A stretch of 64,000 nt of DNA from Rhizaria sp. SCN 62-66. Its lineage: Eukaryota. Position numbers and translations under genes: made by a program. The stretch is taken from contig MEDY01000106.1 of the NCBI GenBank assembly GCA_001724265.1, forward strand, positions 1-64,000, written 5' to 3'. The notes beneath the pieces were generated by a model. That model did no database searches and was not told the DNA's origin. It saw only the letters and a list, made by a program, of their open reading frames with translations. Positions 857 through 62,809 of this stretch are shown one piece after another (position 1 is the first letter of the stretch; every line of letters begins with the position of its first letter).

Positions 857-902
857 GTCGGTCGGCCAAGCAGACCGAGGACCGTCCGACCAACCGACCG
901 AC
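857..902. promoter_or_regulatory. CCGACCG-rich inverted repeat in the divergent RPL12/GDI promoter
   Basis: GTCGGTCGG (857-865) and CCGACCGAC (894-902). The same core recurs in other upstream regions. Confidence 0.4.
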
Positions 903-18900: not shown

Positions 18901-19515
18901 ACCTAACGGAATACCACCACCACCAGCGGCAATAGCAGTGTTACTGTCGCCGTTTAGCTGCTGCTGTTGCTGCTGTAGCATCTGCTGCTGCTTGAGCGCC
19001 GCCCTGCGAGCCTTCCCATGCTGTGCCCAGTACACACCCTGTCCGAGCCGCGCCTTGACAACGCCGACGTGCCGCGTAGGCAGCGTGAGCACGGCGCACA
19101 CGCGCGGGGCCAGGTCCACCACGCCGCTGCCGCCGTCGGAGTCCTCGCCCGCCACCGCCGCCGCAGGGCTGCGGCGGGAGCCCTGGGGCGAAATGACAAA
19201 AGGCAAGGGATATGCATGAAGATATGAGCTTATAAACTCAAAATTAATATTAAATATATGTTAAGTAGTGGTTGGTCCACTTTATATAAAGTTTAATTAA
19301 GGTTATTTGTTATATATTGTGATATACTCCGTGTTTTGTGTTAAATGAATAAGCGTACCTGCGTGAAAGCTCCGTCGAGCCGGACGACGATGACACGGAC
19401 GGCGTCGGTAAGTGTGCCAGTGGGGTCAGCCTCGGCGATGGCCAGCAGGCGACCGGAGGGGTGCGCCGCAAGGGCCGTGGTGGCCAAGGTCGCGGCCGGG
19501 GAGACGCGGGACCGG

Positions 19516-19551
<36 letters not shown>

Positions 19552-20708
19552 TGTTGAGACTAAGACTGAGGGTTTGACTGCGGTTGTGAGTTTGACGCTG
19601 TAGCGGCGGTGGCGGTGGCGGCGGCGACGGCGGCCGTGCCAGCCGCTACGGCGGCCCCCGCCGCGGCCACTGGGTCATAGGGGGGCGGCATGATAAGCTC
19701 AAAGTGACCGTGAGCAGCGGAGTGACCGTGAGCGGCGCCGGTTCCTGCAGTTGTTACGCCACCATTGGTACTCGCACTCGCGGTCGCGTTGCCGCCGCTA
19801 CCTGTCACATTGCTTGGGTTATTCGCGGTATTAGCGCCATTGTTGCTGGGGACAAGGCCGGGTAACAGAGCTAGGCCGGGCTTCTTAAGAAACACGCTGG
19901 TGACTGTGGGGGCCAGAACCTACGACAATGACGACTTCGAAGTAAAGCCGCTATCACTCACGCTCGAGCTAGAGCTGGAACAAACGTTGCCACTAGAGTT
20001 AGAGCTAGAGCTTAAGGTGGCGTTGATGTTGTTGCTGTTGTTGCTGTTGTTGCTGTTGTTGTTGAGTGTGCGGAGGATGATATGCGGTCCGTTGGCGTAG
20101 GCTGCGACCGGGCCCACCGCCGCCGCCGTCGCCACAGCGTTGATCTGTGCCCCGCTGGCGTTGTTGTTGAAGTTGAACGGCAGCAGCGGGGATGGGAGGT
20201 ACTTAGAGTGGATCTGAGGGCCGACGAACACGGCCGAGTCGTCGTAGAGGGGGTCGAACGAGTGGACAGACCGGGGTACTGGCGCCAAGTCGATGGTGTG
20301 GGAAGCCGGGCGGGGAGGCGGAGGGGCAACGGAGGCCACCCGCGCAGCAGCACTCACACCCGCATTAGAGCTCGAGGTAGAGCTAGATCCATAGCTGTTG
20401 GCGTTGCTGCTGCCGCTGTTGCTGCTGCTGTTGTTGTATGATGTGGGATGGGCTGATGACGGGCGCATGGTAGCGCGGTTGCTAATAGCAGCGCCCGGCG
20501 CGGACAAGCTGTCCGTAACCACGGTGCCGCCGCTGACAACGCCGCCGCCGCCGCCCGCGCCGCTGTGCGGAGGACGGGGGAAGGCGGAGGCCGGACGGCC
20601 CGCTCGATGCGGGGGTTGACTGGGGGTCGCCTCCGCGAAGGCTGAGCGGGCTCGGGGGTCCTGCGGGGCCGCCGCGGGAGACACAAAGGACGCGGGAGGC
20701 TGGGACAT
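6913..20708 (-). CDS. giant WD40-repeat plus C-terminal coiled-coil protein, CFAP57/WDR65-like (~4270 aa if two TAG codons are read as sense)
   Basis: Exons 20708-19359, 19182-9985, 9749-9172, 8993-8763, 8572-7994, 7795-6913 sum to 12819 nt, in frame, all introns GT-AG. WD blades TALAAHPSGRLLAIAE, LQWSPCGRYLLLVGDGPAWPVMVWEW, PLALALHPSGATLLVA and LRYSHAGHLVAAAAG, followed by a coiled coil. In-frame TAG at 19920-19922 and 19560-19562. Ends in TAA. Confidence 0.75.
10389..10410. repeat. dispersed mini-hairpin word CGTCTAAG-TACCCC-CTTAGACG (core TAAGTACCCCCTTA)
   Basis: Exact 14-nt core at 10393-10406, 26060-26073 and 60498-60511, and as reverse complement at 44231-44244. Confidence 0.75.
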
Positions 20709-22393: not shown

Positions 22394-25300
22394 TCACTAT
22401 TCACTGCTGTTGTTTTGTGGTTGTTCAATATTGTTGTCTCTATGGCTGCTGCTGCGACCAGTGTTGCTGGTGTCGCTGCCGTTGCTGTTGAGACTGCTGC
22501 GGCGGCTGCTACGGCAAGCGCCAGAGAAGCCAATAGTGCTACTCGAATCAAGCTTAATGCGCCGCAAACGACCATGCTGCTGTAGCTGTTGCTGCGACTC
22601 GGCTGCTCCTGTGGCTGCCGCAGTGCCAGCTTCTGCTGGGGACGCAACCGAGATCGTCGTCAACGGCGTTGCAAGCGGCAGGTGCGACTGCGGTAACAGC
22701 AACGCTGCCGCCGCCGCTGCCGTTGCGGAGCCGTGCATCTCTTGCGACAGCGACCGTGAGCATGACTGCGACGGAGACGGCGACGGCGACGGCGACTGCG
22801 AGCTGGGCGACGACAGAGGCGGGGACTGGGAGCGGGAGCGTGACTGCAACGGTGAGCTGCTCAGGGGTGCGCGCAACTGCGACTGTGGCAGCTGGCGTAA
22901 CTGGGACTGCGAGGGCTGCGTCTGAGACTGCTGCTGCTGCTTATGGAGCTTTTCTAGTAGTTTCTGCTCGAGCAGCAACGCTCTCTTTCTCTCGTGCTCC
23001 TGCTCCTGCTCTTGCACTTGCACTTGCTGCGGCGACTTAGACGGTGACTGTGTCTGCGACTGAGAATGTGTCTGCGAGTGCAAATATGAGTTCGACTTAG
23101 AGCTGTTAGACTGCGAGTTCAGCTGGGACTGCGGCTGGGGCTGAGACTGTGACGCATTCAAAAGTTGTGACTGCGTCTTGGCCGCGTCGTCTCTCGCGGC
23201 TCTAACGGCAACGGCGCTGAGTCCAGTCGGAATTGACACCGACAAGTTGTAAGTGCTGCGATTCCGTGTGCTGACTCTCCTGTCGCTGCCTCTCGACTGC
23301 TGAGATTGCTGTTGCTGCTGCTGTTGTTGCTGCTCACGGTCATTACCTGCACTGTACGTCGCGTTTGGCGCTAGACTGAGGCCCACAGTCAACCGGCCAC
23401 GAGAGTTCAGCTTCCCCGGCGAATGATGACTCTGCCCTTGGCCGTGGCCGTGACCGTGGCCGTGGTCGTGACCGTGAGCAGCTGCGGTCTGGCTGCAGCT
23501 GTGGCTTTGCGCACTCGCCTGACTGTAGGGATGGCTCGAGCTCGAGGCCGCGCCATGGCTATGCGCACTGCACTGACTCAGTGCCGCGCTATGACGGTGA
23601 CTTCCGTGGCAGTTCCCGTTACCAAGGTTCCGACTCTGGTTGTTATCCTTCGGGTTGCTTTTACCGCTCTTGTCGTCGGCGTTGCCGGTGGATTCGTCGT
23701 CAGAGTCGGTCACTGTAACCACCGTGTTCTTGTCCGCATCGGCGTCGGCGTCGGCGTCGGCGTCAGCGTCACTTCTACTTGCGCTTGCACTTGCACTGGA
23801 GCTTGAGCTCAAGCTCATTAAGCTCAAGCTCGCGTTCACACGGCCACTGCCATTCTTATCACTGTCATCAGCGTTGCGTTTGCCATCCGTGCGCTTGCTA
23901 TCAAGGCAATTCGCGTTGATCGCGATCGCGTGATCAGCAGTCACCGCAGCGTCAGTAGCAGTCTTAGCAGCTGGAGCAGCAGGAGCAGCAGCAGGATTGA
24001 GAGTGGCACGACGACCGCCTTGATCGAGATCGACCCTATCAGCCAGTCTCGTCGTCGCCGCCTCAACCAGCGCCGCCGACGTGGCCATCAGTCGCGACGC
24101 CGTGGCCGGAGACGTGTCGGCCGGGGCCGCCGTCGCCGCCAGCGCGCTGCTACTGAGTGTGCAGGTAGTGAGGGTTACCGGCCCGCGCCGCTGCTGCCGC
24201 CGCTTGCTCTGACTGTGGCTGTGGCTGCTGCTGATGTGGCTGCTGCTGCTGCTGCTGCTACTGCTGTTGCTGGTGCCCTCGTTGGCGCTGGTGAGGCTGC
24301 CGGGGGTGCTCGCAGTCTCATCAACGCCGGCATTTAGCGCGCTCATACTCAGACGCGTGGGCTCGACCTCAGCCGCGGCCGCAGCCGCAGGCTTGGTGGT
24401 GGCGGCGGCCGCTGTGTGTGCGTGCCTGTGGGCATTGTTTGCGCTCTGGGCAGTGCTTGCACTATGGGCGGTGTTTGCACTCGCACTGCTGTGGGGACTG
24501 TGGCTGTGGCTTTGACTGTGGCTGTGGGCGGAGATGCTTGAGGGCGTCACAATCACGCTCGCATTACCCACGTTGATGCTATTGTTGTTGTTATTGCTGC
24601 TGCTGTTGTTGTTGTTGCTGGCAGCGTGAGAGTGTGAGTGGTTCGAGGGGGTGTTTGCACTGCTGACCGGAGTCACAATCAAGCTGTTGGTCACATTGAC
24701 GAAACCGGTGCTGATACTGCAACAAGAGTCACGGCCGCCGCTCTCGTTGTTGTTGCTCATGCTAAGGCTCGTGCTGGTGTTGGTGGCTGTAAGGCTGCCG
24801 GTGTCGACAATGACGGCGCTCGCGCTCGCGTCGATCTTGAGCTCCCACCTCTTGGCGAACGAGCGCCCGTGACCGTGGCCAACAGCAGCAGCAGCAGCAG
24901 TAGCGGCCGCCGCCTTCGTCGTGGAATCATCTGCGCCTAAGCTTGTAAGTGGAAGGGAATTGGCGACGCCAGAATTTGCGTCATTGCCAGTGTCGTTGCT
25001 GTTGGCAGCGAGCGTACCATCACCCCTGCTTTGATCGTCCCTCGACGAGACGGCGGCCGCATCCGCCGCGGTGACGGCCGCGGTATCAGTCTCCGTCTCA
25101 GTCGTCGTCGCAGTGGCCGCCGCAGTCGTCGTCGTCATGGCCACCTCGGCCTCGGTGTCGGCCGAGGTGACCGTGACAGGAACACTCCTCACAGAGTCAG
25201 CGGCAGCGACAACAACAGGAACAAGAGCGGCGGTCGCGTCATTGCCCGCGTGAGTCGTATCAGCAGCCTCAGCGTCAGCAGCGGCCGCCGCCGCCTCGGC

Positions 25301-28300
25301 AGCAGCCTTGACAAGCATCCTCAGCATAGCAGAGCCCTTGCTGCGGCTGCGCAAGTGCTTCTGCTGCCGCTGCTGCTGCTGTTGCTGATGCTGTTGCTGA
25401 TCACCGTGTCCCTGATGCTGTTGTTGCTGCTGTTGGAACATTGGCGAAGGCGAATGAGACTGTGAATGCGTCTGCGACTGGGATTGCGAATGTGAGGGCG
25501 ACTTTGTGGGCGACGGCGACGGCGACGGCGAGTGCAAACGCGACGCAAGAGCGCTCGCAATGCCGCTGCTGCTGCAGCTGCCACTGCCGCTGTTTGTGGC
25601 AGAGCTCAAGCTACTGAGACTGCTGCTGTTGTTCTTGTTAATGCTGCTGCTCAGAGGGGTCGGTGACAGAGGGCCGAAGGTGAACCGCTTGACGTCGAGA
25701 GGCGGCTTGGGCGGCGGCTTAACTTCCACAACGACGGGGCCATTACCAGTCGTCGCTGATAATGCTTTAGACTCATTCGTACCAAGCCGAGGCTGCCCCT
25801 TCGGCGATGACAATGATGAAACAACGACAGTAGTCAACTCAGGAACCGGTAAGGGCTCCAAATCTAACTCTTTCTGCTGCTGCTGTTGCTGCTCTTGCTC
25901 ATGCCCTTGCTCCAGCTGCTGATGTTGTTGCTGCTGATGCGGCTGTTGCTGTTGCTGTTGTTGTTGTTGCTGATCGTTCTCTGGTGATTGTGGATGCTGT
26001 TGACTCTTCTTGCCACTCTTACCACGCCTGCCTGTGCCGGCGGTACTTACATCCGCGTCTAAGTACCCCCTTAGAATGTAGGTCGCCATCACGCCCTTGC
26101 CCTTGACCCGAATACGGCCGCGCCGCTGCAAGTCGAACCTCTTAGGTGCACTCGTACTCACACCGTCGCTGCCGTGAAGGCTCTCAGCGCCGCCGCCGCC
26201 GCCGCCGCCGCCGCCCCCGCCGCCGCTGCTGTTGCTCGGGCTGTTGCCTTGACTACCGCTGCCGCTGCTGCTGCCGCTGTTATGACTGCCGCTGCGGCAG
26301 TGGACGACGCTGCGTTTGACAAGGCTGTATGTGGCCTTGGACAGCTGTATCATGCCGCCCTCGGCTGTCGACTGCATGCGCGAAGCTGTGTTGACGGTGT
26401 CGCCGAAGAGGCGTAGGCGGGGGAGCTTGAGCCCGATCACGCCCGAGATGACGGGGCCAGAGTGCACGCCGATGCGGAACTGCACGGACTGCGTCGTCGT
26501 CTCCACAACTACCTTGCTCTTGCCGCCGCCGCCGCTTTTGGCCACAGGACTGCTGTTGTTAGAGCTGGCTTCGAACTGACCGAAGCTTGAGTAGTTCGCA
26601 AAGCTCGAGCTCATATTTGCAGCAGCAGTCTCGCCGGCGTCGTCGCTGTCCGCATCGCTGTCGGTGGCAGGGACCTCGACCTCGTCGTGAAACGCGAGCT
26701 GGAACGTGTCCGCGGCGGCCTGCAGCTCCAGCGCCAGCTCACACAACGCCTCAGCGTGGCGAGGGTTGTGGACGAGGACGCCCGCGGCCACCATGTACAC
26801 CTCACCGACCGTCTCGACCTTGTAGACGTCGCTGTAACGGTCCAGAATGCCGTCAAAGGCGGTGAAGATGTGGTTCAGGAATAGCAGGACGTCCTTGGCG
26901 TCGAGGAACTCCACCAGCAGCTTGAAGTCCGAGATGTCGCAAAAGAGCACCGAGGCCTGGTGGGACAGAGACGCCGTCGTGCTGAGGGGGTCCGTGGCCG
27001 TCGAGTCGATGAACCTCAACGCGGACTTTGTCAGCACCTGGGCCTGGGACTCGGCCTCGGCGAGGGTCAGCGCAAGGGTGGAGTCGATGTCGAGGTCGGC
27101 GTCAGAATCAGAATCAGAAACATCAGAATCAGAGTCAGAGTCTGAGCCAGAGTCTGAGCCAGAGTCTGAGCCAGAGTCCTGATTATCGCTCACCATGACA
27201 ACGCCAGCCGCTGTGCCGCTACGCTTGCGTTGCTGCTTCTTCTTAAGCAAGTGTTGAAGCCGCTCTAAAGCAGCAATCGCGTCGACATTGATGTTCTCGC
27301 TCGTCAAGTGCGTTGTCAGCGCGTGTGACGAGGCCAGGTAGCTCTGCAGGACACGGTAGCAGTCGCTGCCGCTGCCGTATCTGCTGCTGCTCGCGCTGAC
27401 TGCGCTACTGTGGTGCGACCGGGACTGCGCTTGAGAAGGGACGAGAGTCTGCAAGAGCTCGAGAGTGAACTTGCTTTCGTCAAGGTCATCAGCATCAGTC
27501 TCGTCATCGTCGTCGTCGTCGTCGTCGTCATTGTCACCATTCTTGCTCTTAAGGCGCTTATTACCCTTGTTTTTGCTCTTGCTCTTGGTGTTATCGTTGC
27601 TAGTATAGTACTGTAAGAGGAAGAGGGACCGGTATGACTGGTCGTAAAGAGAATGCAAGTGAATTAGCAACGCGGTTCCGAAGAAATGCAGAGTTACTAA
27701 CAGATGTGTGCGTGATGATGGCAAGATGAACTTGAGCACCGCAGAAATCGAGTCGTAGAGCGTGGAAGTTAAGCCGCAGATGACTGAAGAAGCCAACTCA
27801 ACGAAAGCGGTCAAAGTAAAGCCGCCAGCGCCAGCGACAAAGGTTGGAGCAATGAAAAGCTGCACAATGAGCAAAGCGACCAAGATTGCCACCGAAGAGA
27901 CAATGAGAGGACGGAGAGCAGCGAGCTTCCGGACGTAGGGATGAATCAAGCGGGAGCTAATCATGGCAGCCTTTTTCTTCGAGTGCTTCGTTGGACTCTG
28001 AGCAGGCGTTGCTGTCGGGGTCTTTGTAGCAGTCACTTTTGCTGTTTCTGCTTCCACCGCCCTTGTTGCTGCTGCTGTTGTTGTTGTTGCTGTGAAGCGA
28101 GTAAACAGCTTGGACGCGGTAAAAGCAACAAGTGCGAGAACGATAACGCGCACGAGTTCAGTGACAATACCCACAACAGCTTCACTAATCGACTCGCTGC
28201 TAACGGCAGTGATTGTTGCAGTGTACGCGACAAAGGCCGCCCAGCAGACCGCCACAGCTGCAGCAGCAGAGTGGCCGTGAGCAGTGTGACCGTGAGCAGA

Positions 28301-31300
28301 AGCAGCGCCGCTGAAAAACAGCGTAAACAAGCACGATATCAGCATAAGCAACGGTGATGGCAACGGCGACTGCGATTCAGGTTGTGAAAGCGACCGTGAC
28401 TGTGAGTATAGAGGGACAACGAGATATTGTAAAAAGACAACGAGTGCGACTAACGAGGCGTTAAGAAGGTAAGCCGCGTTGATGAACTTCGCCGCACGCT
28501 TAAGATCTTCAGACCTCAAGTTAGCCGCTTCGAAAAGTGTAGCCGCGAACTTTTTGTAAGCCGCCTTAATCCGACACACAGTGCCAACATCGGTAGCAGT
28601 TGTGTTTGCACTGCTACCGCTGTCGAGGAGAGAACTGTTGTTGTCGTCGTTACAGGGCGTGCTAACGAGTTTGTGAGACTTGTAAAGCAAAATCAGCACA
28701 GGCAGAGGCAACAGCAACAACCACAGTAGTTGTGAACTCGTGTTCGCCGCATAGCTGCCACGACTCGGGGTGAACATGACGCAGAACACCAGCGCAAGTT
28801 GCAGCGCAAGAGCGAGCGTGACAAAGTGACTGTGGGCGTGAGTGTAGAACCTCTGGTACGCGTGCTCAAGCGTACCATGACTGAAGCCCCTCGAAGGCCA
28901 CACCAACGACAGAGCGTCACTCACGAGTCCAGTAATCACGTGCCCACCGCTGATGATGCTGCTATTATTGCTGTTAATGTTGTTGCTAGTGTTAGTGATG
29001 ATAGTACTCGAAATAAAGCCGCCGTGCAACTCGACAGCGGCTTGACTTAGCACAGCCCTAGGATACTTTGACAGATCGCTGTCGCCACTGTCCGTGTGTT
29101 CATCTTCGTCACTGTCACTACCACTGTTAGTCACACCATCACTGGTCCCAATAGTACCACTCGGACCCATACTGCCACTGCGAGCGCCCTTAAATGCTTT
29201 AGCCCGGGGGTTTTCGGTCCCGGCGCCGGGCAGCAGGAAGCGCTCCCAGCGCCCGGGCCCGTGTGGCCGCAGCCGCTGCTGCGGCGGAAGCTGCAACCTC
29301 AGCGGCTGCGCGGCGGGGGCCGGGGCAGGGGCCAGGGCGATGGGGGGAGTCGCAGGAGTGGACTCAGATAACACAGTCGAGACGGATGATGTCGGCGACA
29401 CGTTATCGGCATCAACGGTAGCAGCGGTAGTCGCGGCAGCCGGAGCGTCAAACGCAAAGGCAGGCATATGGGGAGTCGTCGGGCCATAGGTAGAGGGAGA
29501 AACGGGGGCTAGACCGGGGGGTGCATACGCAGTCAGCGTTATAGAGCCAGAGCCAGAGCCAAAGCTCGGGCCAGAGACAGTGCCAAAGCCGTAGACAGAG
29601 GCAGGGGCAGGGGGGGCATATGCAGAGCCTGGGGCCAGAGACACAGCGGGGGCGGGGGCAAAGGCGGCGGCTGAGCCGGCGGCGTAACCCTCACTGCTGA
29701 AGCTGGAGGACAGGGGGGGCATCAGCTGCGGAGGCGGGGGGTTGAGGTCGGACGCGCTCAGTCCCAGCGCAGTCAGGCTGTAAGAGCCGTCATCGTACCG
29801 CTGATCGAGCTCCTGCTCCTGCTCCTGCTCCTGCTCCTCTGGCGGGTGTTGAAGCTGCAGTTGCGGCTGCTGTCGCGGCGGCCCAGCCTCCTGCTCGCAC
29901 CGATACTGCTGTTGTGTCGAGAGCATGAGAGACGCGATCGCTGCGGGATCAGCCGTTGTCGCTGATGCAGCGGCGGCGGCGGCGGCAGCGGCGGCAGCGG
30001 CGGCGGCGGCGGCGGCTGCAAGCGGCGGCGCTGGCGCGACTTCTCCTGCCGCCGGTGCGGAGTGCGACAGCACGGGTAAGGCGGGACTTGAGGCAACAGC
30101 GCAATCTGTAGCTGACACCGCAGCAGCAGCAGCAGCAGCAGGAGTAAAACACACAGCAGGACCAACATCAACAGCAATGGCGTCGCCAGCAGCAGCGCTG
30201 AAACCGGTGTCAGCACAAGACGCAGTCGGTGTCACGGCAGCAGCCGACGACAACCGTAGCTGTGGCTGCAGCTGAGACTGCGGCCGCGGCTGCGCCAGCG
30301 AGTCCTGCGCCTCGGACAGCAGTGACTGCGACTGCATCTGCAGCTGCAGGTATAGCTGTTGCGGGTTGCTGTGGCGATGCCTCAGCCGCCGGGGCCCGCT
30401 GCCGCTGCCGCTGGTGCTGCTGCGCTGGCTGCTGTTGGGGTTGTTAATGTTGTTGTTATTGATGTTGTTGTTGTTGTTGTTGCTGCTGCTGAGGTTGTGG
30501 TTTGTGATGCTGTTGCTGGTGCCAGTGCTGTTGGAGTTGCTGTTGCTGCGGAGCAGCTCGGGATTTCCGTGGAAACACGCAGACAACCTCGCCATTGCGT
30601 CCGCTCCTGAAGCCAGCGCAGACGCTGACGCAGACGCTGACGCAGAAGCGGACGCAGAAGCGGACGCAGACGCCGATGCTGCTGCTAAGGCCGACGCAAG
30701 CACTGACGCGGACGCTGACGCTGATGCCAAGGCCGACGCCGACGCAAGGGCGGTGGGTTCAGACAGCTCCGAAGGCGACAGCTCACCAGCGCCGGCGGCG
30801 ACAGCAGCAGCGCCTCTGTCTCTGGCCACGCAAGCCGCCTCCGCGCTGTCCGCCTCAGCCAACGTCACCGTCACCGCCGCCGCGGCGGCGGCGGCTCTGG
30901 CGGGGGGGATGATCGTCGCAGAGGGGGACGACGCCGCCGTCGTCGTCGTCGCAGCTGTCGTGTCTGTGTCACTGAGGGAGATCTTTAGCGGGCCAACGGG
31001 CCTGAGGGCAGTCACTGACAGTGCATTCGTCGCGTCAGCGGCGTTGACAGTAGGAGCGGCGGTGAAATGACCGTGAGCAGCTGAGGCGGAGTGACCGTGG
31101 GCAGCGGAATGATCGTGGGCAGCGGAATACTGTTCCAGAGTGACGGTCGCAGTCTCCGGATTCGTCTGCCGCTGACCACTACTCGCAGCACCAGCAGTTG
31201 CTGACAATAAAGAAGAAGGAGAAGAAACAGGGATTGAAGTCATAACCTCGCTCTTTGTGCGGTTGATCGCCAGCGCGAGGACACCCTGCCCGTGGAACCC

Positions 31301-31567
31301 GTACCCGTGGGTACGGGGAACACCTGGCCCCCCAGAAGCCAAGGTTGCGGGGGGGGCGGGCCTCAGAGAGTCGGTCACCCAGCCGCTGGCGCTTGTGCCG
31401 CCGCCGATGATAGCACCGCTGCTGTTAGCCGGCTTGGGCAGGAAAAACTGGCTAGTAGTCTCGCCTCTACTAGCACCTGCTCCTGAAGCTGTTACCGCTG
31501 TTGTTGTTGTTGTTGCTGTAGCTGTCGCGCGTCTCAGCAAAGCGGCCTGCGTCGCAGCAGCGGCAGT

Positions 31568-31600
<33 letters not shown>

Positions 31601-32783
31601 GGCACTCGAATCTCCTTGCTTCCAAGGCGTTAAGTCCCCCTTATGCCGCGGCGAAGGACTGCTCCCGAGGGGGCTGAAGACGCCGCTGACGTGGGCCCTG
31701 GCGTCTAAATCCGCCAGAATGTAAGGGGCCAGAGGGAGGTGGGACGAGGTGGGTGTAAGAGCTGGGCCGTGCTTGAAGCCGGCGAGCGCAGAGCTTCCGT
31801 TGTTGTTGTTGTTTCTGCAATCGTGGTCAGTTGCGACTACGGCGCCAGCGGCGGCGGCGTCAGCAGCAATAACAACAGCGTTGAAGTTGCTGTTGGCGTT
31901 ATTAGTCGCGTCACAGATCTCACAGCCGCTACTGTTGTTGTTGTTGTTATGATCATCATCACCATCGTCCTCAGCAGCAACAGAAACAGCAGCATTGCCA
32001 ATCAGGCTATCAGGGGCGACATTAGCGTTGCAAAGGCTCGCTGTTGCCAACACAGGACTTGTCACAGCACTAGAGCACGCGCTGCCGCTCCCGGCATTGT
32101 TACTACGGCAGCTGTCAGCGGCAGAGCTAGAGCTGTTCTTATTGCTGTTATTGTTGCTGTTGATAACGGCAAGGTTACGACTTGTGTCATTGACGGTCAT
32201 TGCGCCGCGACGTGACTTAAAGTCAAGCCGCGAGCCGTCGAAGTTGAGCCGCTGCTCCTTGTCTAGCGCAAGAAAATCAGCGTTGTTGTTGTGAACGCTG
32301 TTGTTGTTATCAGGGTTAAGTCGCTGTGCTCCGAAGCTAAGCCGCGGGTCAACGATAGGACTGGTCTTGTTGACAAAAGCAATGCCATCATCATCATCGC
32401 TATGGTGAAGAACGTCACAGCAAGTGTTGCCACCGGTGTAGTTGTTGTTTTCGTTCCCAATCGTCTGAATAGCACTGTCATCAGCAAGCGGACTGCCGTT
32501 ATGGTCACTCATATCGTCTGTGTTCACACTCGCATTCACAGGATTAGTGCCATAAACCGCATTGTTGGCAGAACGGCTGGAGAGAGCATTCGTGTTGTTA
32601 CTCGCCACCATCGGGTTGACGCTGAGACTGTTGGTCAAACTCTGACGTGCGATCGACGGCCGTAAGCTAAGCCGAGGCGACGAGTTAAGTCGCGGCGCGA
32701 AGTTAAGCCGCGGTGACGCAGCAGGCGACGGCAACGTCGACGATGACGGCAACGATGAGGGTTGTTGCTGTTGCTGTTGTTGC

Positions 32784-32816
<33 letters not shown>

Positions 32817-35239
32817 ATGTGCTACTGCTGAGGCGGCGGCGGCGGCAGCGGCGGGAAATGCGACAACACTACCCCCGCAGCAGCAGCAGCCGCCGCAGCA
32901 GCCGCAGCAGCAGTGTTCGTGATCGCGTTCGTGTTGCTGTTAGCGCTGCTGTGCTGGTGCAGCAAGTGGTTGTGGCCGGCGTGGACCTGGACACCGCCCG
33001 CGTTGTTGTTGTTGTTGTTGTTGCTGCTGCTGCTGAGTCGGGCGCGGCTGCTGCGGTGGGGGCTGCTGTTGTTGCTGTTGCGCCCGCTATCGCTATTGCT
33101 ATTGCCATTGCCGTTGGCGCTCGCGCCATCGCGGTCGCGGGCACTCGAGTTGGCTGTGCCAGGGACGCTGCTGGTAATACTGCTCTGGCCCTGGCCGTGA
33201 GAGAGAGCGTGACCGTGAGCGCGACCGTGAGCGTGACCGTGAGCAGCATGGGCAACATGGGCAGCAGCGTGGCTTGAATTCAAGTTAAGCCGCCGCGACA
33301 CCTCCAAAGGAGACAGTATGTCATCTTCCCTCTGGCTGGGCAAGTACAGTTGCTGCTACTGTTGTTGTTGCTCTAAGAGCTGTTGTTGCTGCTGCCACTG
33401 CAGCTGCTGCAACTGCAACCGCTGCATTTGCATCTGTAGCTGCATCTGCTGCTGCTGTAGCTGCTGCTGTTGCTGCTGCAGCATTGTGATGCTCGAGTTG
33501 ATGAGATTGGGGCTAGGGCTCGGACTGGAGCAAGGGCTGCTGTGGCTGCAGCTGCTGCTGGTGGTGTCGGAGACGGAGTTGCTGCTGTGGCGAATTAACG
33601 CCATGATCCTCTGATTATTGTTGTTGCTGGTATTGATGTTGTTGCTATAGGAGTACATAGGCGGGCTAGGAGACGGGCTCGGGCTCGGCATCAGGCTGTG
33701 TGACACACTGGCACTGACACGCGCACTCGCACCAACTCTATTCCCCACGCCAACGCCAGCGCCAATGCTATTAGCAGTGCCAGCGCCAGTGCCATTAGCG
33801 CCAGCGCCAGCGCCAGAGCAAGTGGCATTCAATGCGCCATTGAAGCTGCTGAGGCCGACACTGCTGCTGCTGCTGCTGCTGTTCAAACCAACACCACTAG
33901 TGCTGTGTCTATAGCTGTGGCCTAAACGGGGTCGCGGGCTACGGCTATATTGCTGCTGCTGCTGCGGCGGCGGCTGCTGCTGGAGTTGCTGTTGCTGTTG
34001 CTGCTGCTGTTGCTGGTTGCTGCTGTTGCTATTGATCAAGTGACCGTGAGCAGCAACAGCAGACGCAGAGTGACCGTGGGAGCTGATGGGTGAAAGCACG
34101 TAGCTATTGCTGATCCCAAAACCACCGACGTTACCGCTACTGATATTGTTGTTATTGTTGTTGTTACTATTGTTGTTGTTGCTACTGCCCGCTGTGGGGC
34201 TGAGGTTGCTGTTGAGCCCGGTGACAACGCTGCCGCCGCCAGGGTGGCTAAAGACGACGCTGCCACTGCGACCGTGTCGGTCACCGCCGCCACCGCCCCC
34301 GCCCCCGCCGCCGCCTCCTTGGCTTGCGTTGGCGTTGATGCTGCTGACGACGCTGCTGCTGTTGCTGCTCGCGCGGGGACGGTTGCTGCTGTTGTTGTTG
34401 TTGTTATAGCTATAGCTGTTGTTGTAGGCAACGAATCCTGAGCTACTCAACGTCGTATCAGCAGCGTTAGCAACATTCGCACTAGTCACATTCGCAGTCG
34501 CTGCGCATTGAGCGTTGCCGGAATTATGAGGGCTGTAGCAATTGGCGTTGTTGGCAGCGCCGGCGCCCGCATGCACGTGAAAGTACGGACTGTGCGGGCG
34601 ATGTGGGCTGAGCGGACTGTGCTGGCTCTGGGGGCTCTGGGAGATGCCGTTGTTGTTGTTGCCATTGGTGTTGTTGTTGTGGTGGGGATAGAAGCTACCA
34701 TTGGAGCTATGAGGGCTATGGGGACTATGTGGGTCATTGTAAGTGCCCGCGCCCACGCCCGTGTGAGTACCACTCGCCGCCGCCGCCGCCGCTGCTGCGA
34801 GAGCCGCCTGCAGTGGCGGCGGCGGCGGTGGTGACACCGGGGGCGTCGGCGTTGAAGCTGCCGTTGCCGCTGCCGCGATATGCGTCGTTTGCGTCGTCAA
34901 AATAGCGCCACCGATGGTGATGGTGCGAGTACTGAGGCGCCGGTAGAGGCTGCTGACGCTGCTGCTGGCGCTGGGGGCGCCGCTACCGCTGCTGCCGCCG
35001 CCGCCGCTGCCCACGGTCGCATGCCCTAGCCCCTGCCCATGTCCCTGTCCGTGCTGTGTGTAAGAAGGGTGATACGGGCGGGGCGTTGGAGGAGAGCTCG
35101 GGGACTGCAGCGGCGGCGAACGCTGCGGCTGCTGCTGCGGCGGCGGCTGCTGGTACTGTTGCTGTAGTTGTGGTGGCCAGGGAGACCTGCCGCCGCTGAC
35201 GCTGCTGCTAGCGCTGGCGCTGGGTCGCCGCGAGTCCAT
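22394..35239 (-). CDS. giant multi-transmembrane class III nucleotide cyclase, guanylyl-cyclase-like (~4280 aa, apparently intronless, three in-frame TAG)
   Basis: ORFs 35239-33356, 33343-32822 and 32752-22397 share one frame and are separated only by TAG. A TGA follows the last TAG at 22394-22396. Hydrophobic helices at ~27650-28840. Cyclase domain at ~26340-26960 with SVLFCDI, YKVETVGEVYMVAAG, RIGVHSGPVISGVIG and LFGDTVNTASRMQST. Confidence 0.85.
33209..33244. repeat. tandem copies of dispersed 12-mer GTGACCGTGAGC
   Basis: Exact copies at 19704, 19722, 23468, 28286, 33209, 33233, 34040 and 48919, and reverse complement at 4670. Confidence 0.75.
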
Positions 35240-36942: not shown

Positions 36943-37276
36943 CTTGACGATCAAATTTGCCCACAAAGCATCAACAAAGTTCATGCACCAACGTTGACTC
37001 ATCACTCGGCCAGTGCAAGTTGTCGCTGCACAAGTCACTCACACTGGCGAAGCCACAAATGAGATACAAAGCACTCGATTCTATGAAACTTTTGACTGTA
37101 TTATAGATTTACAAAATATATTTTCATCATTATTTACATTTTTATCATCATCACCATCATCATAAGCCATCAAGCCCCTTCTAAACTTAACACAGATCAG
37201 AAAACAAGGCCTCACGCTTTCACACCCCACCCATCGATTAGTTGCTCACAATGCTGTTTCGCGTTTCGCAGTGAAC

Positions 37277-40069
37277 TTAGCCGTCGCGGGCGTCGCCGAA
37301 GGTCTCGTCCTCGTCGTCGGCCTGCTGCTGCTTCACGGCCTCGGCCTTGCTGGCCTCGGACCGCATGCCGCTGACGATGGCGTCAATACGCAGCAGCAGC
37401 GCGGCGGCCTCGAGCGCAGTCTTGAGCGTCTGCGTCTTGACCAGGGCGGGCTCCCAAAGGTTCAGCGTCGTCATGTCCGTCATCGTGCCCAGGTTGCCGT
37501 CGAGTCCGAACGTGAACCCGGTGTCGATGCCGTCCGCGCCGATGATGTGCTTCGCGCGCAGCTCCGTGATGAGCCGGATCGTGTTGGCGCCGCAGTTCTC
37601 ACTGAGAGTGCGGGGGATCACCTCAAGCGCAGTCGCCACCTCGCGGTAGGGGCCCTGCTGCGCGCCGGAGACGGACTTGGCCTTCTTGGCCAGCGCGCAG
37701 GAAAGCGCCATCTCGGTCGCGCCGCCGCCGGGGACCACGCGCGGGTCCAGGATCACGTTGCGCGCCACGGCCATGGCGTCGTGCAGGTTGCGCTCGACCT
37801 CCTGTTTGGCGGACAAAAACGAGCAATTAGAGGGTTAAATGTGAGGGCATGTTAATAAAAATAAATGCAAACGTAGAAAATATAGCAAGGTTTTTTCGAA
37901 ATTAACTTTGCGTTCGAGAGTGCGTTATATCACCGGGTTTTCATGGAAAAACACAACTTTAAACCACAAGACTCAAGCGAACTTGAACCGATCAAATTAT
38001 TGATCACATTTTGATAATTTTCGTTAATTTCACAGTAACACGCAGTAAATGCGGTGCTATGATATGACGCACCTGGAGGACGTCCTTGGAGGCGCCGCGG
38101 AGCAGGATGGTGCACGCCTTGGGGTCCTTGCACTTGACGATGTAGGTGAAGTACTCGTCGCCGATCTTCTTGACCTCGAACAGCCCGCAGCCGGTGCCGA
38201 CATCCTCCTCCTTGAGGTCGCGCGGGTCGTTGGCGATCGTGGCGCCCGTGGCGCGCGCGATGCGGTTGTTGTCGGTCTTGCGGACGCGGCGGATGCACGT
38301 GATACCCGCCTTGTGGAGGTAGTGCGAGGAAAGCTCGGAGATGCCCTTCTCGGTGATGACCAGGTCGGGCTTCAGGGCGATGATGGCGTTGCACACGCCC
38401 TCAATGTACTCCTCCTCCTGCTTCAGGATGAGGTCCCAGTCCTCCTCCTTCATGATCTCGACCTGGGAGATGTGCAGACAGAAAACAACAAGACGAGAAA
38501 AAGATCAAAAATGAGATATGACAATATAGGTGACATCAACTTGGAAATAAATTACAGTATACTATAAATAGCAAGTAGAAACATCTATAAAACATGTTTT
38601 AGAGTTAAATGATCAAGATATAAACGGGTTCAAAGCTGATGTTTCAAGTGCGTACCTGGAGGGCGGACTCGGCCTTCTTGTACTCGAGGTTGCAGTCAAG
38701 CAGCACGATACGGGGGTTCTCAATGCGGCGGCGCATCTTGGAGTCAATGACGTCCTTGTTGAGCATGATACCGTCGATGACACGGGAGTTCTCCATGTAG
38801 TCACCGGGAATCTTCTCAACGCGCGCGTAACGCTTGAGGTCAATCTCGCGATGACCGCCATCGTTGGTCACCAGGACCGTCTTGACGGCGTCGATGGCAA
38901 GGTTCGAGATGAGGTCGCCGAAGCGGGCAGTGAACTTGGTGCCGAGGGTCGTGTTGACGATGTCGAGCAGGACCTGTGCAGAGAGAGGAGAGATCGAGAG
39001 AAAGCAAAGCGAATAGAGCGAGTCAAAGCAAAGCGGAGAGAGAGAAAGAGAACAAAAGAAGGGATTGTGAGTTTGAGTAAAAGTAAAATAGAAGAAAAAA
39101 TATAGTACTATACGTCGTTATATATCGTCAAGTTTCATAATATTTTAAACAAAGCACATCTCGTAGACCATCTATAAACCCAAACATGACAGCTGACTAG
39201 TCTAGGTTGTGCGAGTGCTGCGTACCTGGCGGTTGTCGAGGTCGAGCTCCTTGGTGTTGTTGTTGATAAACTCGAGCGCGTCGTCGAGCGCCTTGTAGTA
39301 GGCGGAGATGATGATGCGCGGGTGCATGTTGCGAACCAGGAAGGGCTCGGCGACCTTGAGCAGCTCGGCGGCGAGGATGATGACCGACGTGGTGCCGTCG
39401 CCGACCTCCTCGTCCTGCGTGCGCGACAGCTCGATCATGTTCTTGGCGGCCGGGTGCGAGACGTCAATCTCGCGCAGGATGGCGTTGCCGTCGTTGGTGA
39501 GGTTGATGCCGCCCACTGGGTCGAGGATCATCTTGAGCATCGCGCGCGGGCCAAGCGTCGTGCGGATGATGTCGGCCACGGCGCGCGCCGCGGCGATGTT
39601 GCTGAGCTGGGCCTTGCGGCCGTGCTCACGCTGCGTGTTGGAGTCTGGGCGAAACAAGACACAAAACATGGGATGGAAAGAATTAGAGAGAGTGGGAGTC
39701 ATGGAAAAGCAGGAGATAGCTTAAGAAGTGTGGTGGGTACCGGCTGGGCAACGGCTGGGTTGAGGCTGCGCGAGTCGAATTTGAATCGAATAATACACCC
39801 ACAGTCCACGTCAGAATAGTCTAATATAGCGTCTTATGGTGCATTATGCAGTGTTTAATGCAAAGATGAAAATATACTTGCTATATCCGCACGCGGGGAC
39901 GCAGACCGGGGCAGATTAGTGCGCTCGCGAGCGCCACACGCTAACAGAACCTTCCCGGCGAGCGAGGAACTAAGATGGCGCAAGGGCGTCGCAAACAAGG
40001 GCAAGGAAGAAAAAGAATATCGGACGTACTCAACACGAGCATGGGAACTTGTCCACCGCCCGGCATCAT
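37277..40069 (-). CDS. CCT3: T-complex protein 1 subunit gamma
   Basis: Exons 40069-40030, 39644-39226, 38973-38656, 38462-38073, 37801-37277. Motifs RTTLGPRAMLKM, TNDGNAILREI, DEEVGDGTTSV, EIDLKRYARVEKIPG and EVERNLHDAM. Ends in TAA. Confidence 0.97.
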
Positions 40070-41319: not shown

Positions 41320-41351
<32 letters not shown>

Positions 41352-41371
41352 GACGACAAGAGCAGCTAGCC

Positions 41372-42226
41372 ATGCTTACTCGCGTCCCCCGCGTGGCCCT
41401 CTCCCGCGCCACTTCGGCCGTCTCCGCCGCGGTCCTCTCCGTCCCCTCCCGCTCCTTCGGCGTGCGTGACCCCTACGCCGAGCTGGACACGACCGAGGCC
41501 GACCAGGACAAGATCAAGTCGTTCCTGTCCTCGATCAAGCTCGCAGAGCACGCCGACAAGTTTAAGTCGTGGGAGCACCTCGTCGTCTCCCCCAGCCACA
41601 CGCTCAAGCACCACATGCAGATGAACGTGCGCGACCGCAAGAAGCTGCGCCGCAACGTGCACAACTGGCGTCTCACCCAGTTCTACGCCACGGGCAACCC
41701 CTACGTGCCGGCCGGGCCCGACGGGCTCGGGCTGCGCAGCAAGTTCGAGAACGCCAACGACGCTAAGCTCTCGTCCTCCGAGGAGGAGATCAACGTGCTG
41801 TTGCCCATGGAGACGCAGATCGGCTTCTTCACCGCGTCTAAGCACTACCCTGGTACCCGCGCCCGCAAGGGAACTACCATTGTCATCGACAACTCTCCCG
41901 CTGCCGCCGCCGCCGACGCCGACGCCGCCGCCGCCGAGGGCGCTGAGGCTGAGGTGGACTCGCTCATGACCGGTGTCCTCCCAGACAACTCCAACAAGGC
42001 CTCATCCTCGTCCGTGGCCGGGGCACTGGCCGGCGGGGCCGGGCTGCTGGGCGGGGACGCCTTCGGCTCGCGTGCGCGCCAGACCAAGCTCGAGGCCGCC
42101 AAGGCCGAGGCCAACGCCGCAGCGGGCCTGGGCGACAACGGGCCCGCCGTGCCCGGCAGCGCCGCGCTCGATGCGCTGGAGCTGCACCGCAAGCTCGTCG
42201 GCCGCGCCGGCCGCGTCGTCGCGTGA
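41372..42226 (+). CDS. mitochondrial small-subunit ribosomal protein mS41 (Fyv4/IGR SAM-like domain) with a C-terminal extension
   Basis: Arg/Ser/Ala-rich presequence-like N-terminus (MLTRVPRVALSRATSAVS..SRSF). Segment IKSFLSSIKLAEHADKFKSWEHLV..LK..MNVRDRKKLRRNVHNWR resembles the IGR domain. Ends in TGA. Confidence 0.65.
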   Translation: MLTRVPRVALSRATSAVSAAVLSVPSRSFGVRDPYAELDTTEADQDKIKSFLSSIKLAEHADKFKSWEHLVVSPSHTLKHHMQMNVRDRKKLRRNVHNWRLTQFYATGNPYVPAGPDGLGLRSKFENANDAKLSSSEEEINVLLPMETQIGFFTASKHYPGTRARKGTTIVIDNSPAAAAADADAAAAEGAEAEVDSLMTGVLPDNSNKASSSSVAGALAGGAGLLGGDAFGSRARQTKLEAAKAEANAAAGLGDNGPAVPGSAALDALELHRKLVGRAGRVVA

Positions 42227-42700
42227 GAGAAAACGCCGATAGCCGCGGTGAGATGAGCGCGAGGGAGAAGGAATAATATTATAGCGGTGGTGATAAAGCG
42301 GTGGTGATAAAGTGGTGCTTTTCACTGGTGTCGAGTGACATCGTTGTCTTGTGGAGAGTTACAGGAAGCTAGTTTGCTCTTCTTCAAGTTCAAGTTATTC
42401 AAGTTAAAGAGGGCCGGAGTTGTGTGTGTGTATACTTGGCTTTGTTTTGTTTCAGATCAAGCTAAGGGAATATTTAAAATAGATAGTATTTGACAAGTAA
42501 TACTCGAAAATAAAACTTTTATATCATTTAAACACCTTCTAGGTCCATCTGATCCTCATGTTTGAACTCGACAGAGCGTTTGTGGTTGGAGAAAGCAGCC
42601 GCCCCATCCATCGATCCATCCAGCGAGTTGAAACGCGGTTTTTCATCCGAGATTTTTGCGTCTTCTTGACCGTCGTTGTGCGTCAAAACTTGGTGCCGAA

Positions 42701-44228
42701 ATGTCTGCTTTTCCATACAACGCAACTGCTATCTCCGATTTCGACCCAGTCGAGCGCACGGAGCTGCGTCTTCGCAAGGGCGACCGCGTGCTGGTGACGG
42801 CTGCGACCAACTCCGAGTGGGCCAACGTCCGCCTACTCGGCAGCAACAACGCCGGCTGGGTCCCGTTTAGCCACCTGCGCCCCGACGCCGGCGTTGCCAC
42901 CCCCGCCATCCCTTCTCCTCCGGTGCAGCAGCGGCCTCCTCCTCAGCAGCAGCCGCCTCAGCAGTACGCGGGATACGGCTACCCCCAGCAGCCCGCCGCT
43001 CACGGCGGCTTCGCGCCCGCCACCGTGGCCAGCGCCGCCGCCGCACCCTACGCCGCCACCAACGCGCCCGGCGGCTATTACCAGCAGCCGCCCTCAGCCA
43101 CCTGCGCGACTCAGTTCAACAACAACAATAGTGTTGGCGGCTACGCTTCCCAGCCTCCCCCCGCTTGTACCCCTGCCGCCGCCACCGGGGGCAGCGGCAA
43201 CTACAACGGAGCCGCGACAGGCGGCTACGACGCCTCGTGCCCGCCCCCGCCGCCGGCTTACCAGTCCAACGACGCCAACTCCACGGGTGGTGCATATGGG
43301 CCCCCGCCGCCGCAGTATTACACCGGCCAGGGATACCAGGTACGAGACAACACTTTATCGTCATATACGAGTATATCTCCGCCAAATCGCACTCCAGTAC
43401 AAATTCATCTCAGTTACAGTTACGAGCCGTGTTATCAGAAACGTGAATATCTATTGAATTAGCTAGTTTTGTATCTAACAGAAAACGTCTTTTTTGTTGA
43501 ATGTCACGTTTTGTTTCTCTCACGACGCAGGCCGGCGGCTACAATGCGCCCTACCAGCAGCCTTAGCAACAGCAGCAACCGCTGCCGCAGTCGCAGTCTT
43601 ACCAGCAGCAGTACCCGCAGTACCCCCAGCAGTACCCTGCCCCGCAGCAGCAGCCTCAGCAGCAGCAGTACCAGCAGCAGCAGTATTACCAGCAGCAGCC
43701 GCAGCAGCAGGCAGTTCTGATCCCGGTCCCTGTCCCAGTTGTCGCCACCAATGGAGGCAGCTACCCCTCTGCCGGCGGGCCCCGCGGCGGCCGCTACGGG
43801 CCCCCGCCTTCTCATCATGGCCACGGCCACGGCTACCCAGGCTCCCGCGGCTTCTTCTGCCGCTCGTGCGGCGAAGGATACAACGTGCCTGGCGGCGCCT
43901 CCTCGTGGCGCTGCAAGCGCTGGTACGTTCAGCCTACTATTGCAACTGCTCGCAAAACGTGATGACTTGAAATTCTAATTATACAATTCCAATGAGATTT
44001 TGTCGGTGAAACATGCTTTGACGAATGATATTCTATGACAGATTGGTATTGATATATCGATTATTTTGAAGTTGAAAGTTTATTAGATCACTGTTCATGT
44101 GATATTTCATGTTTCATGGTAATTCTAAAAGCTTAAGTGTTTATCTTTGTGTTGCATTCTCTTCATTTGCTTATTTCCACAGTGGCACGATGAACTCTCT
44201 TGGCGGTGATCAGTGTATCGTGATGTGA
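42701..44228 (+). CDS. SH3-domain protein with Pro/Gln/Tyr-rich linker, C4 zinc ribbon and C-terminal CaaX box
   Basis: Exons 42701-43339, 43531-43922, 44183-44228. SH3 motif AISDFDPVERTELRLRKGDRV..EW..GWVPFSHL. C-terminus FCRSCGEGYNVPGGASSWRCKRCGTMN..CIVM-TGA. In-frame TAG at 43564-43566. Confidence 0.85.
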
Positions 44229-62805: not shown

Positions 62806-62809
62806 GAAG

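Follow-up and report, generated by a model that had tools for sequence, protein, structure and literature searches.

Internal TAG codons in low-complexity exons of an uncultured GC-rich eukaryote: possibly young nonsense alleles in glutamine-rich sequence

Five internal TAG triplets in the window, i.e. the whole 64,000-nucleotide stretch of DNA that was analysed, are genuine genomic TAG codons within coding exons of three genes. The reading frames of the window keep TAG out almost as strongly as TAA and TGA, and on the best reading the code treats TAG essentially as a stop codon. The explanation that we tentatively prefer, at a little less than an even chance, is that these codons are young nonsense alleles of the CAG-to-TAG type in glutamine-rich low-complexity parts of genes, where they are tolerated or partly read through as glutamine. 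How the TAGs are decoded, and whether a full-length protein results, is something that we infer.

A recheck of the window found six TAGs in three genes at exactly the positions given by the original prediction, and the flanking residues that it had quoted also matched. The genes, their introns, the TAGs and a control gene are as follows.

19359..20708, minus strand: gene 1 exon 1, 450 codons from the ATG at 20708, two in-frame TAGs (from the translation and the coding signature in all three segments)
19183..19358, minus strand: gene 1 intron, 176 nt, 30% GC, GTACGC to a Y-tract and CAG, with the consensus of the RNA-proven CCT3 introns
9904..19182, minus strand: gene 1 exon 2, coding for a giant protein of low complexity that has a weak beta-propeller match; no in-frame stop
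22394..35239, minus strand: giant adenylate/guanylate-cyclase gene, 4,280 codons from the ATG at 35239, ending TAG-TGA (Pfam Guanylate_cyc, E=1e-42)
37185..40030, minus strand: CCT3 (chaperonin gamma subunit), control gene with four introns proven by a spliced RNA contig of run X5, a TAA stop and no in-frame TAG
42701..43339, plus strand: SH3 gene exon 1, SH3 domain and P/Q-rich stretch (Pfam SH3_1, E=8e-10; donor CAG/GTACGA)
43531..43922, plus strand: SH3 gene exon 2, with an in-frame TAG at 43564-43566 and the first half of a CxxC...CxxC motif (acceptor Y-tract and CAG at 43528-43530)
43923-44182, plus strand: SH3 gene intron between exons 2 and 3
44183..44228, plus strand: SH3 gene exon 3, completing the CxxC...CxxC motif and ending in TGA (spliced model)
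19920-19922, minus strand: internal TAG, gene 1 codon 263
19560-19562, minus strand: internal TAG, gene 1 codon 383
33356-33358, minus strand: internal TAG, cyclase gene codon 628
32822-32824, minus strand: internal TAG, cyclase gene codon 806
22397-22399, minus strand: terminal TAG of the cyclase gene, with the TGA at 22394-22396 directly after it
43564-43566, plus strand: internal TAG, SH3 gene exon 2

Exon 1 of gene 1 ends in phase 0 at CAG/GTACGC and is joined in frame by the intron to an ORF of 3,119 codons, and the gene probably continues into more exons downstream of 9904. A phmmer search with this exon gave as its sole match the organism's own ORF, ending at TAG1. Altogether, six introns were defined, of 176-385 nt and 30-50% GC, all of which start with GTRCG and end with a Y-tract and CAG; the four in CCT3 are RNA-proven. 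Real intergenic spacers are 0.6-2 kb long and AT-rich. In the SH3 gene, an X5 RNA contig stops exactly at the exon 2 donor at 43922. The window also contains mS41, a mitochondrial ribosomal protein gene.

It had been claimed that five of the TAGs are followed by coding-like sequence in the same frame and the sixth by TGA, and our models agree: five lie inside exons, and that at 22397 runs directly into TGA. Nine segments before, between and after the TAGs were scored for codon usage, and frame 0 had the top score in eight of them (+0.33 to +0.82 per codon, with the other frames never above 0.00); in the ninth, the part of SH3 exon 2 that follows its TAG, CAG repeats made the outcome ambiguous. 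None of the nine contains a further stop, and in all of them A occupies 0-14% of third positions, against 28-32% in intergenic and intron DNA. Downstream of the TAGs, no stop interrupts the frames, and their coding-like character persists, for up to 3,474 codons. Across the 10 modelled genes (12,746 codons), we counted five TAG, no TAA and no TGA in frame, as expected from the claim that internal TAA and TGA are absent. The observation that no TAG falls in a conserved domain also stands, since all five internal TAGs lie in low-complexity sequence without a Pfam domain or homologue.

Comparison with reads covered positions 32000-44100 of the window, so that 19560, 19920 and 22397 fall outside it, and 32822, which sits in a stretch skipped as repeat, is without independent support. 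The original prediction required the TAGs to be present in reads, and this was fully borne out at 33356, which is unchanged in the contigs of X3, X4 and X7 (all three runs that cover the site) and is therefore not private to one sample. At 43564, it was borne out in part: the base is T in the window and in X3, but C in X4 (DNA) and in X5 (spliced RNA, in a contig that spans the position), giving CAG, with no depth in X7. The T alleles are those of the source population and of X3, and the size of X3 suggests that it might be identical with X2, a data set of the source's own study. This is the sole site with an alternative allele, and that allele encodes Gln and not Leu. Only two base differences occur across 12.1 kb; because 43564 is one of them, and differs as T/C between populations, the TAG there must be very young. 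The second, found in X4, replaces a cysteine of the CxxC...CxxC motif within that SH3 exon, which hints at relaxed constraint there.

As a sense codon, TAG is very rare. It accounts for five of the 607 Gln-type codons in the 10 modelled genes (0.8%), three of which carry at least one. The ratio TAG/(TAG+CAG) is 5/478 (1.05%), compared with 27% for the synonymous analogue TTG/(TTG+CTG), i.e. approximately 25-fold lower, and the shortfall relative to known UAG=Gln codes is likewise approximately 25-fold; the synonymous pair predicts approximately 129 TAGs where five are seen (P of five or fewer, 7e-57). The conserved genes CCT3, GDI exon 1, the Fcf1-like gene, the RRM protein, ELMO, mS41 and P0002 contain no TAG in 4,565 codons within this one 64-kb window, and neither does the full CCT3 ORF of an 88%-identical relative. 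In each of the two giant genes, both TAGs are confined to the opening 11-19% of its length (joint P, 3e-4 to 3e-3). Under this codon usage, 64-68% of all single-base nonsense mutations give TAG, so that five TAGs out of five have a P of 0.11-0.14; the presence of TAG alone is for this reason weak evidence for reassignment. ARAGORN and Rfam found no tRNA with a CUA anticodon in the 64-kb window, in which the single tRNA is Leu(AAG); nor does the window encode eRF1.

With regard to gene ends, the original prediction listed 14 terminators, all TAA (6) or TGA (8). The absence of a lone TAG was upheld, but only 11 ends were judged to be real, namely five TGA, five TAA and one TAG-TGA. Several further ORF ends in the earlier list may fall within introns, as they lie at donor-like GTRCG or GTAAG sites. 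If TAG had a share of 15-30%, the probability of at most one TAG in 11 ends would be 0.11-0.49 (no lone TAG and one TAG-TGA were seen), and these terminator counts are too small a sample to be significant either way.

The leakiest base at position +4 after a stop codon is C, which follows three of the five internal TAGs and none of the 11 terminators (Fisher P=0.018). A Gln codon directly adjoins the TAG on at least one side in three of the five cases and in four a Q run is no more than a few codons away, with a strict Q-stop-Q context at one (33356). The TAG at 19920 has the context SSLS-TAG-VLAP with G at +4 and is without any Gln context. Gln-type codons make up 6.8% of the cyclase gene, 3.8% of gene 1 and 14% of the SH3 gene, and we class these messages as Q-rich. 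In the Q-rich yeast proteins described in the part of the source on which we draw, containing 7 to 20% Gln, a premature UAG or UAA still gave 2-8% full-length product with Gln inserted, which sufficed for normal growth (PMC13192750).

Under the preferred reading, C-to-T mutations of the CAG-to-TAG type would have arisen recently in weakly constrained Q-rich sequence, hitting the first fifth of the two giant genes and the linker of the SH3 protein. They might persist in either of two ways: a shortened or missing product may be tolerated, or a near-cognate tRNA-Gln may read UAG in Q-rich messages as Gln at a few percent, by analogy with yeast. The rarity of TAG, the clean conserved genes and the live T/C polymorphism at 43564 all speak for young alleles, as do the match of TAG to the expected nonsense type, the +4 C and Q-run contexts, and the TAG-TGA end of the cyclase gene. 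Against them stands the number of premature stops, since five in three of 10 genes is far above the norm under a canonical code. Moreover, two genes have two TAGs each, and a readthrough of approximately 5% per site, if yeast is a guide, would leave hardly any full-length protein. The TAG at 19920 lacks Gln context, the affected genes show no TAA, TGA or frameshift, 33356 is present in all three covering runs, and none of the 11 ends is a lone TAG. That the genes are simply dead fits poorly with the position of the TAGs, as second hits would be expected anywhere, yet both fall in the first 11-19%.

The closest rival, which we regard as possible but less probable than young alleles, is an incipient or inefficient UAG-to-Gln reassignment at an ambiguous-intermediate or codon-capture stage. 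UAG would have ceased to be a reliable stop and would be translated as Gln by machinery of its own, consisting of a tRNA-Gln(CUA) or a weakened eRF1 or the two together. In unconstrained sequence, a change from CAG to TAG would as a result be near-neutral, while such codons would still be rare, young and polymorphic. This would fit the strict restriction to TAG (five, against no TAA and no TGA, in 12,746 codons), the hits in three of 10 modelled genes, two of them twice, with frames open for up to 3,474 codons afterwards, and the CAG allele at 43564; the lack of a lone TAG among 11 ends, with the single terminal TAG backed by TGA as a relic stop would be, also agrees with it, and TAG 19920, poorly explained by near-cognate readthrough, would be accommodated. 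However, TAG use is approximately 25-fold under its synonymous analogue and below that of every documented UAG=Gln code, the conserved genes have no TAG, and in a reassignment recent enough for such rarity TAG should have remained the terminator of approximately 20% of genes, a point on which the 11 ends are too few to decide. Neutral sense codons, in addition, should not cluster near N-termini (3e-4 to 3e-3), no tRNA(CUA) lies within the window, and CCT3 of the close relative shows nothing unusual. With the same lesser probability, the organism may be at the first point at which a UAG-only reassignment to Gln could be observed, with UAG dropped as a lone stop and decoded as Gln through a dedicated suppressor tRNA; sense TAGs would only now be arising by CAG-to-TAG mutation in unconstrained Q-rich sequence, at approximately 1% of Gln codons so far and polymorphic between populations. 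A settled code in which UAG=Gln, as in Iotanema, Hartmannula or Trochilia, is disfavoured and very improbable: it shares the internal TAGs, the TAA and TGA at gene ends and the CAG allele at one site, but would predict approximately 129 TAGs where we see five (P=7e-57) and TAG in conserved genes, and 0.8% of Gln codons compares with 18.5-31.8% in H. sinica and T. petrani, in which approximately 80% of genes carry a UAG, according to the portion of PMC11687900 on which we rely.

A standard code with other gene models is unlikely, although less so than a settled code. In these models, the stretch before the last TAG of each giant gene would be a leader or a separate upstream ORF, and translation of the functional protein would begin at an ATG further downstream, on a transcript whose start is either the same or internal. 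The confinement of the TAGs of both giant genes to the first 11-19% of the ORF, and N-terminal parts without a Pfam domain or detectable homologue, would suit this, but the upstream parts begin with an ATG directly after an upstream stop, carry a frame-0 coding signature and share the frame of the downstream ORF, and a canonical intron of gene 1 links exon 1 with exon 2 in phase. There is, moreover, no ATG between the second TAG of gene 1 and the exon end or in the 177 codons between the cyclase TAGs, no AT-rich promoter-like gap occurs at the giant-gene TAGs, and the SH3 gene is left unexplained, its zinc-ribbon-like motif being downstream of the TAG. Equally improbable as a settled code are assembly or sequencing errors, or removal of the TAGs by splicing. 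Three sites (32822, 19560 and 19920) are without independent read support, a 42-nt GTGAGT...TAG stretch surrounds 19920, and TAG 43564 could act as an alternative in-frame acceptor; against this, 33356 and 43564 recur in contigs of other runs, the defined introns are 30-50% GC with a GTRCG start whereas the TAG surroundings are GC-rich with a coding signature, and an X5 RNA contig takes in position 43564.

The organism is an uncultured GC-rich eukaryote of bioreactor and wastewater communities, without a close named relative (no named sequence exceeds 63% identity to its CCT3). It is present in several public runs, both DNA and RNA, so that a test is cheap. To our knowledge, documented stop-codon reassignments have all been seen long after the event, with the new sense codon already common, and the passage of a code through a dangerous intermediate stage is argued from theory. 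If UAG is truly decoded as Gln, this organism would show that stage in nature, and the order of the changes could be read from its tRNA set and its eRF1. If the TAGs are instead nonsense alleles that are tolerated, they would parallel in nature what was found in yeast, where Q-rich messages soften the effect of premature stops, and they would call for caution when a code is inferred from a few in-frame stops in low-complexity genes.

Ambiguous-intermediate and codon-capture are theoretical stages of stop-codon reassignment, and we know of no natural eukaryote in which one of them has been documented with UAG as the only codon concerned; the present pattern, with a codon rare both as sense and as stop and with young polymorphic sense-like sites, would be compatible with them. 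The UAG-only Gln pattern of Iotanema spirale (Fornicata), Hartmannula sinica and Trochilia petrani corresponds to NCBI table 15, and our case resembles it in that TAG is internal only, TAA and TGA stand at gene ends and Gln is the likely residue. In the published accounts used here, UAG is common in these three and occupies conserved Gln positions (204 UAG were counted across 126 conserved genes of Iotanema, i.e. 1.6 per conserved gene; PMC5304391), whereas in the window it is rare and in low-complexity sequence only. Nor is this a ciliate-like AT-rich genome, and mS41 is present. In the rhizarian exLh and in the TARA phyllopharyngean lineage, where UAG=Leu, UAG is likewise split from UAA, but the residue there is Leu at conserved Leu columns, whereas the TAGs of the window have Q-rich contexts and, at one site, CAG as alternative allele. 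Unlike the laboratory alleles in the section of the yeast study used (PMC13192750), ours are natural and occur twice per gene in two genes, and their readthrough would be by analogy; like the SNF5, CYC8 and WHI3 nonsense alleles described there, they are stops in Q-rich low-complexity sequence, with C at +4 in three of five.

The window (64 kb) comes from the nuclear genome of a eukaryote, with GC-rich exons (about 60%) and AT-rich introns and spacers, and its presence in bioreactor, wastewater and activated-sludge runs of several studies indicates an uncultured organism. Recognisable genes encode Rab GDI, an Fcf1-like protein, CCT3, the mitochondrial ribosomal protein mS41, an SH3 protein, an RRM protein and an ELMO-domain protein. 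In addition, there are three giant proteins full of runs of Q, N, S and A, including one with an adenylate/guanylate cyclase domain. Four unnamed environmental proteins share 88, 73, 69 and 66% identity with the exon of CCT3, our control gene (37185-40030, minus strand), and no named protein exceeds 63%. A taxonomic look-up in the Atlas with the GDI exon resolved no affiliation. None of 154 matches in a pattern scan of genome contigs with this exon encodes a relative, and among the 80 loci kept from a scan of metagenome contigs only L001 was close (88%); the contig of the window itself was absent from that set. The CCT3 of L001 occupies a 2.3-kb transcript-like contig and is a complete ORF with no in-frame TAG and with TAA as its stop. 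Positions 1-2275 of L001 read as one CCT3 ORF without the three internal introns, the stretch past the first coding exon being seemingly retained, and this contig is probably a partly spliced transcript. In the window itself, a 385-nt CCT3 intron (39645-40029) directly follows the short first coding exon (MMPGGG...), and CCT3 RNA pieces (window 40030-40700) extend to about 40640, indicating a long 5' exon or leader.

Several other features were seen in the window. A search for RNA genes with Rfam and ARAGORN returned a single tRNA, Leu(AAG), at 62809-62890 on the minus strand. The largest spacer is a 2-kb AT-rich stretch (44300-46000, 38% GC) with no convincing ORFs between two convergent genes, SH3 and P0002, and at the left end, where the gene leaves the window, 1-700 on the minus strand holds what appear by eye to be the N-terminal exons of a candidate ribosomal protein L12 (uL11)-like gene. 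The 64 kb contain 18 copies of the 9-base string CACGGTCAC, which encodes His-Gly-His (4673, 15380, 17395, 19704, 19722, 23450, 23468, 24869, 25167, 28286, 31091, 33209, 33233, 34040, 34070, 35250, 48919 and 60686); 16 copies are on the minus strand. The string often lies within identical 12-15 bases encoding (A)AHGH, across at least five different genes, and possible explanations are a dispersed micro-repeat specific to this genome and a favoured low-complexity motif for metal binding.

Four CCT3 introns were proven by a spliced RNA contig of the sequencing run X5, and together with two others (n=6) they gave the consensus CAG/GTRCG, 176-385 nt in length and 30-50% GC, ending in a pyrimidine tract and then CAG. 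With this six-intron consensus the three TAG-bearing genes were modelled as follows.

Genes of the window with in-frame TAGs
Gene 1, minus strand: ATG at 20708, exon 1 to 19359, 176-nt phase-0 intron, 3,119-codon ORF; TAGs at 19920 and 19560 (codons 263 and 383)
Cyclase gene, minus strand: ATG at 35239, 4,280 codons, terminus TAG-TGA (TAG at 22397-22399, TGA at 22394-22396); internal TAGs at 33356 and 32822 (codons 628 and 806)
SH3 gene, plus strand: three exons; TAG at 43564 (codon 225, exon 2)

All six TAGs have the positions and sequence contexts given in the original prediction, and the observation is real. The codon-usage score was best in frame 0 for eight of the nine segments that flank or separate the TAGs (+0.33 to +0.82 per codon, with other frames at or below 0.00), the ninth, SH3 exon 2 past its TAG, being ambiguous because of CAG repeats. 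No further stop occurs in any of the nine, and their third-position A is 0-14%, compared with 28-32% in non-coding DNA. The claim that internal TAA and TGA are absent also held, as the ten modelled genes (12,746 codons) contain five TAG, no TAA and no TGA in frame. This coding signature and these stop counts indicate that the TAGs are exonic and that the frames truly continue; in the spliced SH3 model, a CxxC...CxxC motif is completed over the exon 2/3 junction.

Two ways of splicing TAGs out were rejected. A 42-nt mini-intron (GTGAGT...TAG) around 19920 departs from the consensus in its donor, its length, its AT-richness and its lack of a pyrimidine tract with CAG acceptor, and the stretch scores as coding. 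For 43564 as an acceptor, the pyrimidine tract sits instead at the upstream CAG 43528-43530, and an RNA contig of X5, which is possibly unspliced, includes 43564. Further along, on the minus strand of 6913-9932, three ORFs (9159-9932, coiled-coil-like; 7981-8664; 6913-7869) end at donor-like GTACGT, GTATGT or GTAAGT sites, and gene 1 may continue into them as further 3' exons.

Protein searches found no orthologue alignable across any TAG. With residues 400-805 of the cyclase N-terminus (TAG as Q), none of 8,000 candidates, dominated by low-complexity words, reached E≤1e-10, and the sole match of SH3 exon 1 was the window's own ORF P0125. Gene 1 exon 1, searched with phmmer against 1.84 billion representatives, gave two matches, namely its own ORF P0123, which terminates at the first TAG, and one weak low-complexity match. 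The protein cluster of P0123 has one member from one contig, and two other exact look-ups returned no entry.

Contigs of four runs were compared with window positions 32000-44100 only, a stretch that takes in sites 33356, 32822 and 43564 but not 19560, 19920 or 22397. The TAG at 33356 was unaltered in all three runs with a piece covering it, namely X3, whose independence is doubtful given its likeness in size and word share to X2 from the source's own study, the DNA run X4, and the polyA library X7, whose pieces 25 and 29 cross introns, so that unspliced RNA or DNA is present and the library is no proof of the TAG in mature mRNA. At 43564, T in the window and X3 is C (CAG) in X4 and in the RNA of X5, so the predicted TAG recurs there in one run and gives way to CAG in two. 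This split indicates a real and very young TAG/CAG polymorphism in which the natural residue is Gln. The X4 contig over this site (1,369 nt) differs from the window at two positions in total, and over the 12.1 kb compared the only base differences were 43564 and 43912, both in SH3 exon 2. At 43912, T in the window is C in X4, changing the third Cys of the SH3 C-terminal CxxC...CxxC to Arg. Immediately before the cyclase ATG, at 35435-35436, the spacer also contains additional bases in X4 and X7 (given as GGT and GG), which X3 lacks. Site 32822 lies inside a stretch omitted as a repeat, depth peaks at 33212-33615 were discounted as repeats of other organisms, and parts of the giant gene without RNA cover were not usable as evidence.

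TAG is not used like an established sense codon. Taking the synonymous C/T pair CTG/TTG as an internal yardstick (TTG share 27%), approx. 129 TAGs were expected among the 478 CAG and TAG codons, but five were observed (P=7e-57); since the other two frames contain 32 and 143 TAGs, the triplet itself is common and its in-frame scarcity is due to selection. TAG makes up 0.8% of Gln-type codons, whereas in known UAG=Gln ciliates it is reported at 18.5-31.8% of Gln codons and in about 80% of genes (PMC11687900). For Iotanema, 204 in-frame UAGs are reported in 126 conserved genes (PMC5304391), whereas the conserved genes of the window have none. The predicted reading of UAG as Gln in a settled code is therefore strongly disfavoured, and we consider it highly improbable. 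Our literature search found no report of a wastewater or activated-sludge eukaryote with reassigned UAG.

Two arguments made for reassignment proved weaker than proposed. That only TAG is affected stands as a pattern, but single-base nonsense mutations under the window's GC-rich codon usage yield TAG in 64-68% of cases, and five TAGs out of five has P=0.11-0.14. Termination by TAA or TGA alone was found at ten of 11 accepted ends (five each), the remaining end being TAG followed by TGA; with an assumed TAG share of 15-30%, at most one TAG end in 11 has P=0.11-0.49. Taken singly, neither argument reaches significance.

The explanation that we tentatively prefer, at a little short of an even chance, is that CAG-to-TAG-type mutation would create young nonsense alleles in Q-rich stretches under weak constraint, which would persist through dispensability of these parts, partial Gln readthrough or both, in an organism in which TAG still functions as a stop. 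Plain nonsense alleles have to contend with three of ten modelled genes being hit, two of them twice, with no TAA, TGA or frameshift, and with TAG 19920, which has no Gln context and G at +4. Such TAG specificity, multiplicity and a non-Q site would be better accounted for by incipient or inefficient dedicated UAG-to-Gln decoding, the main rival, which is possible but rather unlikely; rarity and N-terminal clustering it would explain no better.

A further point against plain nonsense alleles is that in each giant gene both TAGs lie within the first 11-19% of the ORF (joint P=3e-4 to 3e-3 if sites are drawn at random from CAG codons or from codons a single base change away from TAG). Such clustering is at odds with a neutral sense codon and with dead genes. 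It is compatible with stops whose cost rises with the length already translated, which points to inefficient decoding, and also with dispensable N-terminal parts. Gene models in error, with starts downstream of the TAGs, are an improbable alternative, the frame-0 signal extending to both sides of the TAGs, and artefacts have a very slight chance, as slight as that of the settled code.

Partial readthrough, as invoked for tolerated nonsense alleles, has a parallel in canonical-code yeast, in which premature UAG or UAA in Q-rich low-complexity domains is reported to be read through at 2-8% with insertion of Gln, sufficient for wild-type growth (PMC13192750). By analogy, two stops per message would multiply the readthrough loss. 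The readthrough efficiency in yeast tracked the Gln content of the entire message, with C at +4 and Q-stop-Q flanks as further favourable factors (PMC13192750). In the window, C at +4 is found at three of five internal TAGs and at none of 11 terminators (P=0.018). Strict Q-stop-Q occurs at only one of the five TAGs, and four of the five lie in or beside Q runs, in genes with 3.8-14% Gln.
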